Positions 3,286 to 20,153 of a stretch of DNA of 44,706 nt are shown piece after piece. The stretch is from NCBI GenBank assembly GCA_021454005.1, contig GCA_021454005.1_3939.1; one strand, 5' to 3'. The notes below the pieces were generated by a model. That model ran no database searches. It was not told where the DNA came from and worked only from the letters and a program-made list of their open reading frames with translations. This DNA is from a phage. Position 1 is the first letter of the stretch. Every line of letters begins with the position of its first letter. The position numbers and the translations under genes were made by a program.

Positions 3286-3859
3286 AAAAGGTCTAGTTAG
3301 AACCTTAGTGGATGTTATTGGTCACAGACTAGCTCGTGATAAGAATAATAGACCAAACGTAATTAGAGCTTACCCTTCTGATAACTCAAATGACAAAGGT
3401 TTAAAACCTGACCAGCCATTTATTACCGTATATTGTCAAGATGCTGCAACACCTTATGGTTGGGTTCTTGATAAGTTTGTTGAGGATGATGTAGTTTGCT
3501 ACAGAATTACTTTTCAGATTCCTGTATTAATTACGGTCAATGGTAAAGGTGCTCACAGTATTATGCTTGAGCTTAAACAACGATTAGAGATGAGTTCAGT
3601 CAGGGATTTAATTCTTGAAGAGACAGGAGCTACAGTACTAGACACTGGAGCCATCCCAAATGACTACACTTATCTCAATACAGATTTCGAAAATTCTGCG
3701 CCTCTTGTTGTAACTCTTGTAAAAAATTCAGTCCTGAAAGATGAACGTGGAAGTATTATTGAGCGTGTCATTGTTGATGGTGAGTTGGTTTATGAAGAAG
3801 GACAAGAGCCACCAGAATATACTATCCATCTAGATGTAGACTCCAAAGGGGTAAAATAA
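3260..3859 (+). CDS. neck / tail terminator-like protein (hypothetical)
   Basis: 199 aa ORF immediately upstream of the sheath gene; position only. Confidence 0.3.
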   Translation: MQLETAELEKGLVRTLVDVIGHRLARDKNNRPNVIRAYPSDNSNDKGLKPDQPFITVYCQDAATPYGWVLDKFVEDDVVCYRITFQIPVLITVNGKGAHSIMLELKQRLEMSSVRDLILEETGATVLDTGAIPNDYTYLNTDFENSAPLVVTLVKNSVLKDERGSIIERVIVDGELVYEEGQEPPEYTIHLDVDSKGVK

Positions 3860-5212
3860 ATGTGGAATCCAATTGTTAATGTAGATATTACATTGAACAC
3901 CGCAGGAACTACAAGAGAAGGTTTTGGTTTGCCACTATTCTTAGCTTCAACAGATAACTTTGAAGAAAGAGTCCGTGGTTATACTTCCTTAACTGAAGTT
4001 GCTGAAGATTTCGATGAAAACTCTGCTGCATATAAGGCTGCTAAACAACTTTGGAGTCAAACTCCTAAAGTAACTCAGCTTTATATTGGTAGACGTGCTA
4101 TGCAGTACACTGTATCAATTCCTAATGCTGTTACTGAAAGTACAGACTACTCAATTACTGTAGCTGCTGGCGGTGGAATTTCTCAACCATACCAGTACAC
4201 AGCAGTGGAATCAGACACTGCTGAGAAAGTTTTGCAACAGTTTAAAACACAGATTGAAGCTGACCCAACAATCAAAGATAAGGTTTCTGTGAACGTAACT
4301 GGTAGCAATGGCTCTGCCACAATGATTATTACCAAAGCTGGTGATAATGACTTTGTGAAAGTAACAACCACAGCACAGACTGTGTATATTGCAAGTACAA
4401 CTGCCGATACAGCATCAACTGCTCTGGCAGCTATCGAAGCTTACTCTACTGACTGGTATTTCATTGCAGCAGAAGACAGAACTCAACAGTTTGTCTTAGC
4501 AATGGCTTCTGAGATTCAGGCTCGCAAGAAAATCTTCTTTACAGCTAACTCCGATGTAACAGCCCTGCAAGGTACAGAATTAGCCAGTGCAAATGATGTT
4601 CCAGCACAGCTTGCTAAGAGTATGTACACTCGTACAGTTTGCTTGTGGCATCACGCAGCAGCAGAAGACTATCCAGAGATGGCATACATTGCTTATGGTG
4701 CTCCATATGATGCAGGTTCAATTGCTTGGGGTAATGCTCAGCTAACTGGTGTAGCAGCTTCTCTACAACCATCTAATCAGAGACCTCTGACAAGTATTCA
4801 GAAGTCTGCTTTAGATGTACGTCACTGTAACTTTATTGACCTTGATGGTGGTGTTCCAGTGGTTCGTAGAGGGATTACTTCTGGTGGGGAATGGATTGAT
4901 ATCGTCCGTGGCGTTGACTGGTTAGAATCAGACCTGAAAACTTCTCTGAGAGACTTGCTAATTAACCAGAAGGGTGGTAAGATTACTTATGATGATACTG
5001 GTATTACCCGTATTCGTCAAGTCATTGAAACCTCTCTGCAAAGAGCAGTCAACAGAAACTTCCTGTCATCTTACACAGTTAATGTTCCTAAAGCCTCTCA
5101 AGTTGCTTTAGCAGACAAGAAAGCACGTATCCTAAAAGACGTTACCTTCGCAGGTATCTTAGCAGGTGCTATCTTGGATGTTGACTTGAAAGGTACAGTG
5201 GCTTACGAATAA
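3860..5212 (+). CDS. tail sheath protein
   Basis: 450 aa ORF followed by tube-sized ORF, chaperone pair and tape measure, the P2/Mu order sheath - tube - chaperones - TMP. Confidence 0.55.
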   Translation: MWNPIVNVDITLNTAGTTREGFGLPLFLASTDNFEERVRGYTSLTEVAEDFDENSAAYKAAKQLWSQTPKVTQLYIGRRAMQYTVSIPNAVTESTDYSITVAAGGGISQPYQYTAVESDTAEKVLQQFKTQIEADPTIKDKVSVNVTGSNGSATMIITKAGDNDFVKVTTTAQTVYIASTTADTASTALAAIEAYSTDWYFIAAEDRTQQFVLAMASEIQARKKIFFTANSDVTALQGTELASANDVPAQLAKSMYTRTVCLWHHAAAEDYPEMAYIAYGAPYDAGSIAWGNAQLTGVAASLQPSNQRPLTSIQKSALDVRHCNFIDLDGGVPVVRRGITSGGEWIDIVRGVDWLESDLKTSLRDLLINQKGGKITYDDTGITRIRQVIETSLQRAVNRNFLSSYTVNVPKASQVALADKKARILKDVTFAGILAGAILDVDLKGTVAYE

Positions 5213-6388: not shown

Positions 6389-14407
<8,019 letters not shown>

Positions 14408-14409
14408 TA

Positions 14410-15597
14410 ATGGCAGTAGGTGAAATTCAAATTAGTGCCTTGCCTCAAGCAGCCTTACCAATTGACCTTAGTGATATCTTCCATCTTAAGCAGGGTATTG
14501 AGGATAAGAGATGTACTCTTGAGCAATTACTTGCTCCACACTCAAGCCTAAGAAATAACCCTCATGGTGTGACTAAAACACAAATTGGTTTAGATAATGT
14601 TATTAATTCTCTTCAGTTAGTTGCTGCAAATAACTTATCAGATATTGTTAATGTAGCTGAGGCAAGAGCAAATCTACAGATTATGTCTTCAGAAGAGGTT
14701 AATAACCTTGTTCAACAGCATATTCAGGACAAGAGCAACCCACACAATACAACTAAGGCACAGGTAGGATTGAGTAATGTTCAAAACTGGACAACATCTA
14801 ACCTTTATAATGAAGATGCAGATAAGTATGCTACAGCAAGAGCAGTAAATAACTTGTACAAGGCTGTTCAGGCTTCCTATCCAGTAGGTACTATCCATCT
14901 TTCCATGAACTCTGCAAACCCTTCTACATATTTAATTTGTGGGGGTACTTGGGAGTTAGTTTCAAAAGGTAGAGCATTGGTTGGTTATGACTCTGACACA
15001 AGACCAGCAGGTTCTGTATTTGGTGCTTCAACTGTTACTTTGTCAGTTAATAACATGCCTCAACATTCACACTCCGTGTCTCTTAGTGGTGGTGGTCACA
15101 CTCATAATGCAACTGTGTCAATTTCAGCTTTTGATTATGGAACTAAGACTACCAATTCTTTTGACTATGGAACAAAGACTACTAACACAACAGGTAACCA
15201 CAACCATGTTGGTAGTGGGTCAACAAGTACTGCTGGTGCTCACAACCACAGATTGACATATGAAGCAGGCGGTGGCCTATCGGAAAGACCTGCAATGGTT
15301 TGGTCTACAAGAAATGACCAATCGTGGTACTCAGCAGATGCTGTCTGTGAAGTCGCTGGTGCACATACCCACTCTTTCAGTGTTACCACCAACACAACTG
15401 GTAACCACAACCATACAGTAGGTATTGGTGCTCACAGCCACACAGTTGGTATTGGTTCGCATACACATAATGGTACTGTAACAGTTTCTTCTTCTGAACA
15501 TACGCATAGCGGGAACACTAATAGTGTTGGTGGAGGACAAGCTTTCAACATTGAGCAGCCATCCTTCGTACTGTATGTATGGCAGAGAACAGCTTAA
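14410..15597 (+). CDS. tail fiber protein (short), His-rich tip
   Basis: Two copies of the phage tail-fibre repeat (NPHGVTKTQIGLDNV, NPHNTTKAQVGLSNV); C-terminal FDYGTK repeats and HxH motifs (TGNHNH, AHSHTVGIGSHTH); C-terminal end shared with next gene. Confidence 0.65.
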   Translation: MAVGEIQISALPQAALPIDLSDIFHLKQGIEDKRCTLEQLLAPHSSLRNNPHGVTKTQIGLDNVINSLQLVAANNLSDIVNVAEARANLQIMSSEEVNNLVQQHIQDKSNPHNTTKAQVGLSNVQNWTTSNLYNEDADKYATARAVNNLYKAVQASYPVGTIHLSMNSANPSTYLICGGTWELVSKGRALVGYDSDTRPAGSVFGASTVTLSVNNMPQHSHSVSLSGGGHTHNATVSISAFDYGTKTTNSFDYGTKTTNTTGNHNHVGSGSTSTAGAHNHRLTYEAGGGLSERPAMVWSTRNDQSWYSADAVCEVAGAHTHSFSVTTNTTGNHNHTVGIGAHSHTVGIGSHTHNGTVTVSSSEHTHSGNTNSVGGGQAFNIEQPSFVLYVWQRTA

Positions 15598-15606
15598 TTT
15601 CTTTAC

Positions 15607-15628
15607 AGGGGCTTGATAGCCCCTTTTA
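15607..15628 (+). terminator. weak terminator / attenuator between tail fiber genes
   Basis: Hairpin GGGGC-TTGATA-GCCCC followed by TTTT. Confidence 0.4.
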
Positions 15629-15643
15629 AGAGGAAAATTTATA

Positions 15644-18022
15644 ATGGCAGATTACAAGTTGAGTGAATTAAACTCAATCGATACAATCCGTTCAGATGAC
15701 CTTCTTCACGTCAGGGTTAAAAAGAGACCTGAAATGCTTGGTGATGAAGACCGTCGAATGACCTATCAAGATTTCTTAGCATCTTTTAAACTTGAAAGAT
15801 TTGTTCAGATTGCTGGTAGTACTATGACAGGTGATTTAGGGATTGTTAAGTTACTTTATGGTGGTAAGGTAGTCTTTGACCCAACAGGCTCTTCTGAGAT
15901 TACTATTGGGGATGTTTTAAAGACTTTTAAAATCAACGCAAATGGCCTTAAACTAACTATTGCAGATGCTTCAAGGTCGGCAACTGTTTATCATACTCTG
16001 AATAAGCCAAGTCCTAATGAACTTGGGATGAGAACTAATGAAGAGAATGATGCAAGATACTCAAGATTAGCTGCAAATAACACCTTTAGAGGTACTCAAG
16101 CTATTCTCTCTGACAATGAAGCCCTTATTGTTAAGAATATTACACAAGGGATGCCACTCTATATTCGTGGTCAAGATGCAGATGGCACTAACAGATGGTA
16201 TCTAGGCAATGATAATAAAGGCACAGACAACCTTGTTTTAAAAAACGTTAAATCTGGTGCATACGTAGCGATTTTAGCTAACCTAATCTCTGTGAATAAA
16301 TCAATTCAAATCACTGGTCAAGTACAACCTTCTGACTTCTCTAACTTAGATGCTAGATATTTTACTCAGACAGTTGCTAATCAGAGATTTGCACAGTTAG
16401 CTGGTAATAACACATTTAGTGGTTCTAATATTTTTACTAATTTTGTTGTTAAGAAGAATGCTAATGCTATTACCATTCAAAATGGAGATACAGCTACGGC
16501 TTTGTATATCCAAGCAAGGAAATCAGACGGAACTAATAAGTGGTATATTGGTAATGATGGTGATGAGAACATTGTAAACATCTATAACTATTTAGCAAGA
16601 ACACAAATCTCACTAGGTAACACCATTACCATGAGCAGAACAGTCCAAATTGGTGGTCAAGTTCAACCTTCCGATTGGACTAATATTGACTCTAGATACA
16701 TTCCAGCAGCTACTTTGAATAATCTTGCTAAGATTAATGTTGGTAATACATTCACATTCCAGCAAATTATCCAAGCAAATGGTGAAGCTATTAGACTAAA
16801 AAACTCTTCTGAGAACTCACCGTTGTATATTAGAGGTCAGGACAGCACTGGTGCTAATAGATGGTATGTAGGTAATGGTTCAGGGAATGATAATGTTATC
16901 ATCCACAACTATAAGACAGGCTGTGAAGTGAATCTGTCTAGTGTTGCTGCTATTAATAAAACACTAAGAATCACTGGTCAAGTTCAACCTTCTGATTGGG
17001 CTAACTTGGATGCTAGATACTTTGTTAAGACTCAGTTATTAAATCAATCCTTAATGACTGTATCTGTCGATAACCTTGAAAACCCTTCAGCATTTAATCT
17101 TGGCTACTCAGGTTTTGTAAGAAATAATAGTGTTACTAGTGGCTTGAAAGAGTTGGCAATTCATGTTGCTCACTCTAGTAAGTCTGCTGCACACGCAAGG
17201 GGTATCTCTTTTGTATACGGTTCAAACGGTTTGGCAACATTCACCTATGCCTATGACAAAAATGGTGACTATGCCGGAGAGGCACAGCTTTACACAACTG
17301 ATTTCAAACCAACCCCTTCAGATATCGGTGCATACACTAAAGCTGAGACTGACCAGAAGATTGCACAGGCAGTAAGTGACTCTACAGACCTTAATAAAAT
17401 CTATCCAGTAGGTATTGTGACATGGTTTAACAGCAATATTGACCCTAATACAGCACTTCCTGGGTTAACTTGGACGTACCTGAACAATGGTGTTGGTAGA
17501 ACTATCAGAATTGCAGCAGCAAATGGTTCAGATGTTGCTACAACAGGTGGTTCAGATTCTGTGACGTTAGCTGTTGGTAACTTACCATCACACACCCATA
17601 GTTTCTCTGCTACCACTTCATCTTTTGATTATGGTACGAAGGGAACTAACAGTACTGGTGGTCATGCTCACTCTGTAAGTGGTACAACAAGTGCTGCTGG
17701 TAACCACGCTCACCACTTAGGTTTGTTATTAGTTAATGGTGGTGATGCTTTGTACGGTTATACAACAGTTGGTAACAGTCTCCCTAGAACACTTGACTGG
17801 CTTGACAGAAGGGACAATAAATTCCCTAACACTAACACAACTGGTAACCATACACATACATGGTCTGGTACTACAAGCGGTGCTGGCGACCATTCCCACT
17901 CTGTAGGTATTGGTGCTCACAGCCACACAGTCAGTGGTAACACTGGTGGTACAGGTTCTGGGTCAGCATTTAGTGTTACTAACCAGTTCTACAAGTTAAT
18001 GGCTTGGGTGAGAACTGCTTAA
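15644..18022 (+). CDS. tail fiber protein (long), three internal repeats, His-rich tip
   Basis: 792 aa; three ~112 aa tandem repeats (LYIRGQD..RWY.GN...[13 protein letters not shown]); C-terminal FDYGTK and HxH motifs paralogous to the upstream fiber. Confidence 0.65.
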
Positions 18023-18028
18023 TCCCTT

Positions 18029-18057
18029 GTTGACTGATTGTTAAGATGGTGTTAATA
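18029..18057 (+). promoter_or_regulatory. sigma70-like promoter (TTGACT-17-TAATAT) with overlapping inverted repeat
   Basis: TTGACT at 18029-18034, 17 nt spacer, TAATAT at 18052-18057; inverted repeat AAGATGGTG/CACCATCTT at 18044-18083; RBS GAGGTG before ATG 18102. Confidence 0.35.
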
Positions 18058-18101
18058 TTCTTTATGGGTATTCTCACCATCTTGGCTGATGAGGTGATTA
18101 A

Positions 18102-18296
18102 ATGCCTACAATCCTAGCAATTCTTCTAAAAAATCTAGGTAGCTTCTTCTGGAAACTCATTTTATCCCTTCTAAGTGAATACATGATTGAGAAAGTGTTC
18201 TTTAAGCTTGCAAGATACCTTGCGAGTAAAACAGACACACCTATTGATGATGAGTTCGTAGATAACTTAGAAAAAGCTTTTAAGGGGGAGAAATAA
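18102..18296 (+). CDS. small membrane protein (possible lysis-associated)
   Basis: 64 aa, hydrophobic N-terminal segment, RBS GAGGTG; function not established. Confidence 0.3.
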   Translation: MPTILAILLKNLGSFFWKLILSLLSEYMIEKVFFKLARYLASKTDTPIDDEFVDNLEKAFKGEK

Positions 18297-18668
18297 ATGA
18301 AGTGGCTAGAGGAAGCTTTTAAAAATAATATTGGTGCAATTGTAGTTGGTATTTTTAGTGTTATTGGGATGTATACCACTATGCAAGTTTCAAGTGGTAA
18401 GCAAGAAGTATCTGTCACAACAAAGTTACAGCAGCTAGATAATTATTCCAAAAGTAACTATTCAGCTATTCGTGATTTACAGTCTGACATGAGACTGATT
18501 CAGCTAGGGATGGAGAACCAGAAAGTTCAGTTAGAGAATGTTAAGGGTGAAAACGCAAAACTTACCAAAACTCTTGATAAATTCTCTGACAGTGTGAATA
18601 ATCTGGCTCAATCAGTATCAGCCCTCCAAGCTATTACTGAGAAGAACACAAAGAATACTGAAAAATAA
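18297..18668 (+). CDS. membrane-anchored coiled-coil protein (possible spanin-like)
   Basis: 123 aa with N-terminal TM helix (IGAIVVGIFSVIGMY) followed by heptad-like Q/L/N-rich region. Confidence 0.3.
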   Translation: MKWLEEAFKNNIGAIVVGIFSVIGMYTTMQVSSGKQEVSVTTKLQQLDNYSKSNYSAIRDLQSDMRLIQLGMENQKVQLENVKGENAKLTKTLDKFSDSVNNLAQSVSALQAITEKNTKNTEK

Positions 18669-18676
18669 AATTTTAA

Positions 18677-18708
18677 GGCTCCTTTTGACGGGAGCCTTTT
18701 TTGTTTTT
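18677..18708. terminator. bidirectional terminator at convergence of + and - strand blocks
   Basis: Hairpin GGCTCC-TTTTGACG-GGAGCC flanked by A-run upstream and T-run downstream, between convergent genes ending at 18668 and 18707. Confidence 0.6.
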
Positions 18709-19606
18709 ACTTACCTACTGACAAAGGCGCTTCAATCTTTCCTGCATGTTGGTAGTTGTTAATTCCACCGATAAAGTCACTTGCAGTGAGATGTTTTAGG
18801 TCACTTAAAGTGTTAAGTGGGATACCAATCTCAAAAGTTGGTGCATGGAACTCTTCATTGTTCATCAGTTCATAAACCTGCTTCATATGGTTCTGATAAA
18901 TCTGAGTATCTCCAAAGACACCTATCAAATATCGTGGAGTGTATCCAGTCATCTTACAAAGGACTTCCAGAATAAAACCATAAGATGCAATGTTAAACGG
19001 AAGCCCTAAAAAGGTGTCTACAGAACGCTGATACCATTGTAAGTCAACTTCACCCTCGTTGGTGATATAAATCTGAAACAGAACATGACAAGGTGCTAAA
19101 GCCATTGAGTTTGCTGCAATATCTGCTGCATTCCAAGCGTTAACAAGCATGTAACGGTCTGTGATATCACCCTTCATCTTCGCTACTAAGGTCTCTAACT
19201 GGTCTACAACACAACCATCATGACCCTCAAAGTTTCTCCACTGAACCCCGTAGATTCTACCACCTGCATCCTCTAACCAGTCTTGTTCAGAGGAATAATT
19301 AGAGCTTAACCAGCGTTTAAAATCATCTGACCAGATAGTCCAGCGTTCCCCATCATTTTCACCCCAAGTACGGTAACGAAGTTCACCAAGTTTATTCTCA
19401 CCATTCAGGAACCATAAAGCTTCCCCAATAACTTGCCGTGTAAACACCTGTTTAGATGTTAAGAGTGGGAAACCAGTTCGCATATCAAAACGAAACTGTG
19501 GTGGAGCAAATGCAGAGATAACATCTCCAGTTCGTGTAGTACGCAGTTCACCAACGGATAAAACATGGTTCAGGATATTTTTGTAACTCAAATCAGCTTG
19601 TGACAT
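18707..19606 (-). CDS. thyA: thymidylate synthase
   Basis: Motifs ALAPCHVLFQIY (active-site Cys), YQRSVDTFLGLPFNIASY, GRIYGVQWR closely match E. coli ThyA (recalled). Confidence 0.85.
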   Translation of the reverse strand: MSQADLSYKNILNHVLSVGELRTTRTGDVISAFAPPQFRFDMRTGFPLLTSKQVFTRQVIGEALWFLNGENKLGELRYRTWGENDGERWTIWSDDFKRWLSSNYSSEQDWLEDAGGRIYGVQWRNFEGHDGCVVDQLETLVAKMKGDITDRYMLVNAWNAADIAANSMALAPCHVLFQIYITNEGEVDLQWYQRSVDTFLGLPFNIASYGFILEVLCKMTGYTPRYLIGVFGDTQIYQNHMKQVYELMNNEEFHAPTFEIGIPLNTLSDLKHLTASDFIGGINNYQHAGKIEAPLSVGK

Positions 19607-19607
19607 A

Positions 19608-20153
19608 TCAAAAGTGTCCTTTTACTTGTGGAACATAAATTTCAAAGGTTGCTTTACCATCATCCGATGGCCTTGACTGTACCTTTGCAAATACACGGCT
19701 ATCATACAGCTTCTCAAAGAAGTTTTCAAAAGGTAAATGCACAGTGGCCTCTTCAGTAACTTTATGGAAGACTGTATGGAACACCACACCAGCATACGGT
19801 AAAGCATTGACAAGGACACCTGCACCACCAATTACAAAGACATCTTCATCAATAGAGCTATCAAGATACTTCAAAAATGCTCCAAATGACTCTTTACTGG
19901 CTTTAGCATACATTACATCATCTTTGCCAAAGTCTATGCCTAAGTATGGTACAGAATTTGTTAAGATTAGGTTTGCACGTTCTGGTAGAGGTTTACTACC
20001 CAGAGTCTTAAAAGTCTCATTACCCATCACTACTAAGTTATTTTTAGTGAGTCTCTTAAACTCTTGCATGTCCTGTTTATGTCGAGGCCACGGCATACCA
20101 GTTGGAGTACCAAACTCACCATTTTCACCACTTGCAAAGATTAATTTAATCAT
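19608..20153 (-). CDS. frd: dihydrofolate reductase
   Basis: N-terminus MIKLIFASGENGEFGTPTGMPW with LVVMGNETFKTLG..PLPER matches the DHFR fold signature; adjacent to thyA. Confidence 0.8.
   Translation of the reverse strand: MIKLIFASGENGEFGTPTGMPWPRHKQDMQEFKRLTKNNLVVMGNETFKTLGSKPLPERANLILTNSVPYLGIDFGKDDVMYAKASKESFGAFLKYLDSSIDEDVFVIGGAGVLVNALPYAGVVFHTVFHKVTEEATVHLPFENFFEKLYDSRVFAKVQSRPSDDGKATFEIYVPQVKGHF

Follow-up and report, generated by a model that had tools for sequence, protein, structure and literature searches.

In a Felix O1-like coliphage, adjacent genes encode a short and a long tail fiber that probably both end in a T4 gp37-type tip. The collar and needle stems of this tip are common to the two fibers and the tip subdomains differ, and specificity would change by replacement of a cassette. 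We hold this explanation as a whole with high confidence. The DNA analyzed, referred to as the window, is a phage stretch of 44,706 nucleotides (NCBI GenBank assembly GCA_021454005.1, contig GCA_021454005.1_3939.1). Across positions 14000-18100, 264 phage records were matched, the best at 93-98% nucleotide identity and nearly all belonging to Felixounavirus, and the source is identified by its sequence as a member of this genus, a Felix O1-like myophage of Escherichia coli. The two genes, termed fiber A and fiber B, and their neighbors are as follows.

11776-13245, + strand: baseplate wedge protein 2 (full-length match to 9NDY_H, 'Wedge protein 2 (gp023)', 1055.8 bits; Pfam Baseplate_J)
13248-14105, + strand: baseplate wedge protein 1, 285 aa (PHROG 4017 baseplate protein, E 8e-175)
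14105-14407, + strand: long tail fiber (LTF) platform protein, 100 aa (full-length match to 9NDY_S, 'LTF platform protein (gp025)', E 3.6e-65)
14410-15597, + strand: fiber A, predicted short tail fiber (STF), 395 aa, ending in VLYVWQRTA (PHROG 2097 tail fiber, E 1e-137; 9NDY synteny; 2XGF match)
15644-18022, + strand: fiber B, predicted LTF, 792 aa, ending in KLMAWVRTA (PHROG 4277 tail fiber over its full length, 1244 bits; 2XGF match)
18675-18698, either strand: bidirectional hairpin terminator from a terminator scan, closing the plus-strand structural operon and a convergent minus-strand thyA/frd block

The original prediction of two adjacent tail fiber reading frames with VWQRTA and AWVRTA ends at 14410-15597 and 15644-18022 was correct. 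In the structural module of Felixounavirus, the fiber genes come directly after wedge protein 2, wedge protein 1, and the LTF platform protein. Wedge protein 1 has the length and position of its equivalent in Bas63, and in that phage the short fiber is attached to wedge protein 2 (PMC12609058). Because the upstream genes match wedge protein 2 and the LTF platform protein of Bas63 over their full lengths (9NDY), we regard the fibers as orthologs of those of Bas63, and synteny with the Bas63 baseplate (PDB 9NDY) identifies fiber A as the short and fiber B as the long tail fiber. The Bas63 fiber chains themselves were absent among the PDB sequence matches of fibers A and B. The counterparts of fiber A are Bas63 gp26, Sf14 gp52, and VpaE1 gp74, and those of fiber B are Bas63 gp27, Sf14 gp53, and VpaE1 gp75; in these Felixounavirus and Mooglevirus pairs, the gene order, the sizes, and the two-fiber architecture with gp37-like tips are as in the window (PMC4690856, PMC12609058, PMC11821841), with lengths of 395 and 792 aa here and 391 and 792 aa in Sf14. 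The terminator scan gave no terminator-like site between the two fiber genes, and promoter-like sites were not enriched (14, compared with 13.0 +/- 3.5 in shuffled sequences). Two small open reading frames 3' of the long fiber gene (18102-18296 and 18297-18668) belong to PHROGs of unknown function and had no Pfam match above the cut-off.

We compared both proteins with known structures. Fiber A matched PDB 2XGF, the structure of T4 gp37, over aa 146-367 (chain 18-228, E 1.3e-26), and fiber B matched it over aa 647-771 (chain 104-218, E 2.6e-21), where the needle alone was covered. On this basis, the last ~240 residues of each fiber are assigned as a receptor-binding tip of the T4 gp37 type. 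The domain limits and seven Fe sites of T4 gp37 (PMC6957217) served as the reference for the following map of fiber A.

14557-14781, + strand: two shaft motifs NPHxxTKxQ(I/V)GLxNV, aa 50-64 and 110-124 (regular expression on the translation)
14872-15060, + strand: N-terminal part of the collar, aa 155-217 (aligned to T4 gp37 811-881; Pfam Gp10_C; T4 gp10 structures)
15061-15249, + strand: ascending needle stem, aa 218-280 (70% identical to T4 gp37 882-931)
15250-15345, + strand: tip (head) subdomain, aa 281-312, predicted receptor-contacting insert (aligned to the position of the T4 gp37 tip, 932-959)
15346-15516, + strand: descending needle stem, aa 313-369 (60% identical to T4 gp37 960-1009)
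15418-15446, + strand: His-box DNA island, 29 nt, an exact copy of 17903-17931 (longest exact match between the fiber genes)
15517-15594, + strand: C-terminal return into the collar, aa 370-395, ending in VWQRTA (aligned to T4 gp37 1010-1026)

The corresponding map of fiber B is as follows.

16055-17044, + strand: three tandem shaft repeats of ~110 aa, R1 (aa 138-246), R2 (aa 248-359), and R3 (aa 362-467) (Pfam gp37_trimer in three stretches, E 1.5e-56)
17378-17587, + strand: N-terminal part of the collar, aa 579-648 (alignment; Pfam Gp10_C 23.5 bits, under the cut-off of 27)
17588-17713, + strand: ascending needle stem, aa 649-690 (74% identical to T4 gp37 882-931)
17714-17830, + strand: tip (head) subdomain, aa 691-729, predicted receptor-contacting insert (domain alignment)
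17831-17941, + strand: descending needle stem, aa 730-766 (76% identical to T4 gp37 960-1009; Pfam Phage_fiber repeat at aa 755-767)
17903-17931, + strand: His-box DNA island, 29 nt, an exact copy of 15418-15446 (longest exact match; T4 gene 37 is identical over the adjacent 36 nt)
17942-18019, + strand: C-terminal return into the collar, aa 767-792, ending in AWVRTA (domain alignment)

Upstream of these modules, the region of fiber A with the NPHxxTKxQ(I/V)GLxNV motifs matched many PHROG tail-fiber families, and the shaft repeats R1-R3 of fiber B were 42-50% identical in pairwise comparison (z 31-43). Like both fibers, T4 gp37 (D10/D11; 2XGF) has a collar, a six-stranded HxH needle, and a tip insert in the same order, near-verbatim FDYGTK and (S/T)VGIGAH(S/T)HTV His boxes, and a C-terminus of the form VR(T/L)A. 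HxH motifs are located at aa 219, 230, 264, and 278 (ascending) and 319, 333, 342, 351, and 364 (descending) in fiber A, at aa 650, 674, and 688 and 736, 750, and 759 in fiber B, and at 883, 915, and 929 and 966, 980, 989, and 998 in T4 gp37, giving nine, six, and seven motifs, respectively. Those of the fibers align column by column with the seven iron-binding motifs of T4, with aa 230 and 364 of fiber A set in brackets in this register. The HxH motifs had been described as T4-type from the letters alone, and their register with those of the T4 gp37 needle (2XGF; PMC6957217) bears this out; the quoted 20-residue string and GNHTHTW are also present. FDYGTK repeats had been described in both proteins, and this holds only for fiber A, in which the motif occurs in tandem (nt 15130-15147 and 15160-15177; aa 241 and 251), whereas fiber B has a single copy (nt 17624-17641; aa 661). 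For the Bas63 STF, seven di-histidine motifs are reported (PMC12609058), compared with nine HxH motifs in fiber A, and the proteins or the counting may differ. In Bas63, HHxH is placed at aa 692-695 (PMC12609058), whereas in fiber B HAHH lies at aa 688-691.

The fibers also differ from T4 gp37. The needle stems were 60-76% identical to those of T4, about as close as the two fibers are to each other (62-64%), but the collars were only 24-25% identical and the tip subdomains were unrelated in sequence (12-21% identity). Fibers A and B are single polypeptides placed directly on the baseplate, whereas T4 gp37 is the distal half of a four-protein fiber and uses gp38 and gp57A for assembly. By tblastn, which has low sensitivity for gp57A (an 80-aa coiled coil), neither protein had a detectable homolog in the window (no match under E 0.16) or in the complete genome of the relative KhF2 (no match under E 1.1). 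This dependence on chaperones is a property of T4 gp37 and not of the fold. An AlphaFold2 monomer of the fiber A module (aa 136-395), calculated from an alignment with two rows, both taken from the window, was too poor to be of use (mean pLDDT 29, pTM 0.15).

The collar raises another reading of fiber A, namely that it is a gp10-like baseplate pin or structural strut whose His-rich end serves only for trimer stability. Gp10_C is the best Pfam match of fiber A (67.9 bits, above the cut-off of 27), its collar motif YP(V/I)GT...W..(L/F)..G..LVG matches the C-terminal domain of T4 gp10 (2FKK, 5HX2), the Moogle homolog is annotated as 'baseplate wedge subunit and tail pin', and a gp10-like domain was remarked on by the authors of the Sf14 study. 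However, the likeness is confined to the collar of ~80 residues, gp10 lacks an HxH needle, and the match to the gp37 needle spans 222 residues. In addition, the Bas63 homolog was found by cryo-electron microscopy to be a fiber of 430 Å that is anchored on wedge protein 2 and has a gp37-like tip (PMC12609058), and the tip cassette of fiber A is swapped among relatives, as expected of a specificity determinant. We therefore consider a pin or strut unlikely and retain the assignment of fiber A as a receptor-binding fiber.

Next, the C-terminal modules of the two fibers were compared with each other. BLASTP aligned A136-346 with B560-763 at 36% identity (E 2e-21), within a colinear module of ~240 aa common to both fibers. 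Both ends have a strong composition bias, and shuffled sequences reached local scores of up to 112, as would be expected if the two tails were unrelated by descent and alike only in being low in complexity and rich in Gly, Ser, Thr, and His. When Smith-Waterman scores were tested against 1000 residue shuffles, however, the module as a whole had a z of 24.7. Its His-rich part alone scored 227, compared with a mean of 63 after shuffling (z 16.4), and the collar by itself had a z of 7.5 (39% identity), so that the fiber B collar is homologous to that of fiber A despite its sub-cut-off Pfam score. The collar assignment is firm for fiber A and weaker for fiber B. For the N-terminal parts, z was 0.1. 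Both proteins also match 2XGF independently, with their motifs in the same order. These values indicate colinear homology, as originally predicted for the C-terminal regions, and leave a purely compositional likeness with a negligible probability.

Identity between the modules was uneven, at 38-39% in the collars, 62-64% in the needle stems, and 26%, with gaps, in the tip inserts. The part common to both fibers is, by alignment, the scaffold of collar and needle stems, and the predicted receptor-contacting insert differs. The two fibers had been thought to share a tip on different shafts; instead, the collar and stems are common, and the tip insert (A 281-312, B 691-729) is the divergent part. 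The expectation that the DNA should align also failed for the most part, since the codon-aligned nucleotide identity of the two modules was 54% and the only long common stretch was the 29-nt match 15418-15446 = 17903-17931, which encodes ten residues. This exact match and the colinear homology (E 2e-21) would suit a recent within-genome duplication or gene conversion of the module, with both fibers binding the same receptor. Against this, identity apart from the 29-nt island is too low for a recent duplication, and the same codon is used at only 51 of the 92 identical degenerate residues. The tip subdomains differ in length as well as in sequence, and the stems are as similar to T4 gp37 as to each other. 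Moreover, the fiber B cassette is 92% identical to gp37 alleles of T4-like phages and much less similar to fiber A. A recent duplication or conversion is thus very improbable, and the two modules appear to be old paralogs or separate draws from a gp37-type pool. Of the original proposal of duplication or recombination of the module, recombination is retained, with the qualification that it occurs between phages; the documented exchanges include exchanges across families, and none was found between fibers A and B.

These exchanges were traced by nucleotide identity profiles against T4-like gp37 genes and by comparison of alleles, giving one putative cassette per fiber gene.

15180-15405, + strand: fiber A equivalent exchangeable cassette, approximate bounds, from after the second FDYGTK to before the VGIGAHSH box (allele comparison)
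17616-17919, + strand: fiber B exchangeable needle-plus-tip cassette, from the SFDYGTK box (5') to an 11-residue His box (3') (nucleotide identity profile against T4-like gp37)

The 304-nt fiber B cassette was 91-93% identical to gp37 of the Tequatrovirus phages SHBML-50-1, AV122, sutha, N2, and BYEP01; for SHBML-50-1, identity was 92.4% without gaps, compared with 43-45% in the flanks. The 39-residue tip peptide is identical in gp37 of SHBML-50-1 and AV122 (94% nucleotide identity), and the DNA at the tip is closer to these two than to three sampled Felixounavirus alleles of the same type. Outside the cassette, the collar, last needle units, C-terminus, and shaft of the T4-like phages are T4-type, with DNA unrelated to the window, and gp38 lies immediately downstream of gp37 in these phages. 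Among seven Felixounaviruses, the fiber B cassette occurs as three alleles with the same boundaries. The LTF of one Felixounavirus, NBEco005, has a T4-type cassette with the tip of T4 itself (89.2% identity over 288 nt), and the tip allele in the window (HAHH followed by a 15-residue stretch) differs from this and from that of VpaE1. In fiber A, whose tip subdomain in the window shares 12% identity with that of T4 and 26% with that of fiber B, NBEco005 and ULIM9 carry an unrelated allele in place of a block that includes the tip, with flanks 86-98% identical. Each shaft-repeat core of fiber B is likewise a variable block that assorts independently, and five variable blocks do so among six relatives. 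These results suggest that Felixounavirus LTFs and Tequatrovirus gp37 use one needle-plus-tip cassette pool, swapped across families at the FDYGTK and His boxes, which we consider likely. Our incomplete literature search found no paper stating this idea.

Allele junctions at SFDYGTK (5') and the His box (3') were observed between the window and T4-like phages and in both genes among Felixounaviruses, and the positions of these breakpoints point to the boxes as candidate recombination anchors. The fiber A island is kept in seven of seven aligned Felixounavirus alleles. Given codon bias, a 29-nt identity has only a moderately low probability (P about 6e-4 to 2e-3 for each box, uncorrected for the number of boxes), and the anchor role is therefore put forward with caution. 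Alternatively, the boxes may be kept by the demands of the fold together with codon bias, other junctions having been selected out, so that the boxes are not preferred crossover sites. In T4, mutation of the metal ligands and core residues encoded by the boxes is lethal (PMC6957217), and chance identity of nine codons is not extreme. By contrast, in four independent comparisons the junctions lay no more than a few tens of nucleotides away from the boxes, and T4 gene 37 is identical to fiber B over 36 nt at the box but only ~45% identical further 3'. Recombination at conserved adhesin motifs is described for T-even phages (Tetart 1996, 1998, summarized in PMC3157838), and experimental crossovers within such short motifs are also reported (PMC3157838). 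Selection without preferred crossover is thus a real but less favored possibility, and we continue with the boxes as putative anchors.

Taken together, the C-terminal module of each fiber is, by homology, made up in this order of a gp10/gp12-type collar, an ascending strand with one or more FDYGTK units and three to four HxH motifs, a short variable tip, a descending strand with three to five HxH motifs, and a return into the collar. In gp37-type proteins, the chain extends outward through the needle, folds into the tip subdomain at the turn, and comes back, with the C-terminus in the collar (PMC12609058, PMC6957217), and both the STF and LTF of Bas63 have a collar, an HxH needle, and a head, with a chain that doubles back (PMC12609058). 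By analogy with the T4 and Bas63 structures, each fiber is expected to be a homotrimer with its N-terminus on the baseplate, the short fiber on wedge protein 2 and the long fiber on the 100-aa platform protein. By homology, the needle is predicted to bind metal, the chain to form a hairpin, and the tip to bind the receptor. The six strands of the trimer would form the needle, in which each HxH triplet (six His) may hold one axial metal ion, with up to nine predicted sites in the short fiber and six in the long fiber, compared with seven Fe in T4. The tip subdomain at the hairpin turn would contact the receptor; LPS-core structures are the most likely receptor in this genus. Since this subdomain differs between the fibers, they probably bind different ligands on one common scaffold. 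Specificity would shift when the cassette flanked by the FDYGTK and His boxes is replaced, most likely through homologous recombination in the short conserved DNA of these boxes, and T4-like phages would draw from the same pool.

Fiber pairs with gp37-like tips were already described in this genus in 2015 (VpaE1) and in 2025 (Bas63 cryo-electron microscopy), and the general principle of mosaic adhesins is old. For the window itself, the finding of two host-recognition fibers of a Felix O1-like coliphage with T4 gp37-like metal-binding needles is therefore routine. Its useful part is a precise map, according to which the internal insert (A 15250-15345, B 17714-17830), and not the C-terminus, should set receptor choice. 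The natural unit of exchange would be the cassette from the FDYGTK box to the His box, offering ready-made junctions for host-range engineering of therapeutic Felixounavirus and T4-like phages. The map also predicts that the long fiber described here and gp37 of SHBML-50-1 and AV122 bind the same receptor. If the common pool is real, one cassette folds both beside a gp38 gene and in a genome without detectable gp38 or gp57A, and receptor specificity would be portable between 88-kb Felix O1-like and 168-kb T4-like phages.

Both fiber genes, referred to as fiber A and fiber B, are part of a + strand structural operon, and the following features of the window bear on them:

11776-13245, + strand, wedge protein 2 (full-length match to a chain of the Bas63 baseplate structure, PDB 9NDY, 1056 bits)
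14105-14407, + strand, long tail fiber (LTF) platform protein (full-length match to a 9NDY chain, E 4e-65)
14410-15597, + strand, fiber A, 395 aa
15644-18022, + strand, fiber B, 792 aa
18102-18296, small ORF after the long fiber gene (PHROG 402, function unknown)
18297-18668, second small ORF after the long fiber gene (PHROG 4038, function unknown)
18675-18698, both directions, bidirectional hairpin terminator at the operon end (terminator scan)
18707-19606, - strand, thymidylate synthase, first gene of the convergent block (Pfam E 6e-73)
19608-20153, - strand, dihydrofolate reductase (Pfam E 4e-21)

By synteny, fiber A is the short tail fiber, the counterpart of Bas63 gp26, Sf14 gp52, and VpaE1 gp74, and fiber B the long tail fiber, corresponding to Bas63 gp27, Sf14 gp53, and VpaE1 gp75. 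A terminator scan of the window detected no terminator-like site between the two genes, and the hairpin at 18675-18698 divides the structural operon from the convergent - strand block. The record of phage KhF2 carries a Rho-independent terminator annotated on the opposite strand between the fiber genes (locus L009, 1709-1724), to which the scan found no equivalent at this place in the window, and a 'cos site' annotated within the long fiber gene (3375-3384). The 4.1 kb around the fibers matched 264 phage records, nearly all from Felixounavirus, with identities reaching 98%. Members of this genus are Felix O1-like myophages whose hosts are E. coli and Salmonella. Campylobacter phage A132 (MG065664.1, 70.7 kb; ~70% identity over the 3' end of the short fiber gene) and one Staphylococcus-labelled record also match Felixounavirus fiber genes; these are likely mislabelled or contaminated entries.

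The two fibers share a C-terminal module, located where the original prediction had placed it. In BLASTP, residues 136-346 of fiber A aligned with residues 560-763 of fiber B at 36% identity (E 2e-21). When local alignment scores were compared with 1000 shuffles, the complete module reached z = 24.7, its His-rich part by itself 16.4, and the collar by itself 7.5; similarity of composition only is therefore ruled out. The N-terminal parts showed no similarity in the same kind of comparison (z 0.1, 1000 shuffles). The FDYGTK motif, said to be repeated in both fibers, forms a tandem pair in fiber A (aa 241, aa 251) and occurs once in fiber B. In the N-terminal half of fiber A, the motif NPHxxTKxQ(I/V)GLxNV occurs twice (14557-14601 and 14737-14781); this region matches more than 10 different PHROG tail-fiber families, which suggests a shaft element with a wide distribution.

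The shared module is homologous to the T4 gp37 receptor-binding tip. Residues 146-367 of fiber A and 647-771 of fiber B matched its crystal structure, 2XGF, with E 1.3e-26 and 2.6e-21, respectively. Pfam detected the collar domain Gp10_C in both fibers (in fiber B below the cut-off, 23.5 against 27 bits), three gp37_trimer repeats in the shaft of fiber B, and the Phage_fiber repeat. A three-way alignment with the published T4 gp37 limits (collar 811-881 and 1010-1026, stem 882-931 and 960-1009, tip 932-959; PMC6957217) assigned the segments below.

Segments of the C-terminal modules (three-way alignment)
Collar, N-terminal part: A aa 155-217; B aa 579-648
Ascending stem: A aa 218-280; B aa 649-690
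Tip: A aa 281-312; B aa 691-729
Descending stem: A aa 313-369; B aa 730-766
Return to collar: A aa 370-395; B aa 767-792

In this alignment, the HxH motifs of both fibers (nine in fiber A; six plus an HAHH in fiber B) are in register with the seven iron-binding motifs of T4. The feature is already described for the genus: the C-termini of both VpaE1 fibers were found to resemble the T4 adhesin in 2015 (PMC4690856), and cryo-EM of both Bas63 fibers revealed a collar, an HxH needle, and a small head at which the chain doubles back (PMC12609058). The sequence shows the domain order, the HxH register, and the cassette boundaries. By analogy with the homologous structures, each fiber would be a trimer whose six strands form a needle, with one metal ion in each HxH triplet and the tip at the hairpin turn; the short fiber would be attached to wedge 2 and the long fiber to the platform. 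An AlphaFold2 monomer model of the fiber A module had a pLDDT of 29.

The module is not uniformly conserved. Identity between fibers A and B was 39% in the collar, 64% in the ascending stem, 26% (gapped) in the tip, 62% in the descending stem, and 38% in the C-terminal return. The stems are 60-76% identical to T4 gp37, that is, as close to T4 as to each other, and the most divergent segment is the tip, the receptor-contacting part in T4. On these per-domain identities, the fibers share a needle scaffold and carry different tips, which corrects the proposal of a shared tip. The DNA of the two modules, expected to align, was only 54% identical in codon alignment, with one exact 29-nt island at the His box (15418-15446 and 17903-17931) and otherwise no exact match longer than 17 nt. 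This near-saturated divergence rules out a recent event, whether duplication or gene conversion, between the fiber A and fiber B genes; the modules are either old paralogues or separate acquisitions from a gp37-type pool. We infer that fibers A and B recognise different ligands, which, in line with other members of the genus, are probably LPS-core structures.

The T4 gp37 tip needs gp38 and gp57A, whereas the window fibers bear gp37-type tips with no homologue of either detectable by tblastn in the window (1-44706) or the complete KhF2 genome, a search of low sensitivity for gp57A. Where T4 has gp38 and a holin, the window has the ORFs at 18102-18296 and 18297-18668, which are candidates for lysis or fiber assembly. 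The latter showed sub-threshold likeness to an Rz-like spanin (PHROG, E 0.009) and to DivIC (Pfam, 20.1 bits against a cut-off of 28.9).

Recombination, also proposed originally, is real but acts at another level than between the two fiber genes. The needle and tip of fiber B (17616-17919) aligned without gaps, at 92.4% identity, to gp37 of SHBML-50-1, a T4-like phage of Shigella (4001-4304 of its locus); identity to gp37 of AV122 (1501-1804 of its locus), sutha, N2, and BYEP01 was 91-93%. All five are Tequatrovirus, and the DNA flanking their cassettes matches T4 at 83-97% identity and the window at 43-45%. In these T4-like carriers, gp38 lies directly downstream. The window, SHBML-50-1, and AV122 have the same 39-residue tip peptide, and at the nucleotide level the window tip resembles those of these T4-like phages (94%) more than it does the alleles of its own type in CRP22, LF110P1, and KhF2 (85-92%). 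In the reciprocal case, the Felixounavirus NBEco005 has in its long fiber the gp37 stem-plus-tip cassette of T4 itself (STNGEHTHYIEAWNGTG...; about 3709-3996 of its locus), with 89.2% identity to T4 gene 37 (nt 2691-2978) across 288 nt. Near-identical cassettes in unrelated flanks point to recent exchange across virus families.

The same cassette, bounded 5' by an SFDYGTK box and 3' by the His box, was found among seven Felixounaviruses; fiber B has three alleles of it and fiber A has two. Comparison with six relatives in a 60-nt identity scan resolved five independently assorting variable blocks (the tip of fiber A, the three shaft repeats of fiber B, and the tip of fiber B), in a combination that differs in each relative. 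The ~110-aa shaft-repeat cores (16040-16300, 16400-16640, and 16700-16990) are replaced independently, at 40-60% identity, and their junctions (QVQPSDWxNLDARY) are kept at 83-96%. Fiber B and T4 gene 37 have 36 identical nucleotides at the His box. For the nine identical codons that fibers A and B have in this box, the chance probability is only about 1e-3. The boxes may be true crossover hotspots or merely points where viable hybrids can join. The cassette pattern was known earlier from T-even adhesins (Tetart et al. 1996/1998, as summarised in PMC3157838). Cross-family sharing of near-identical tip cassettes is the only element for which the literature searched yielded no earlier statement; it widens a principle already known and adds no new one. 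For the phage itself, we infer that the specificity of the long fiber is that of SHBML-50-1 and AV122 gp37.
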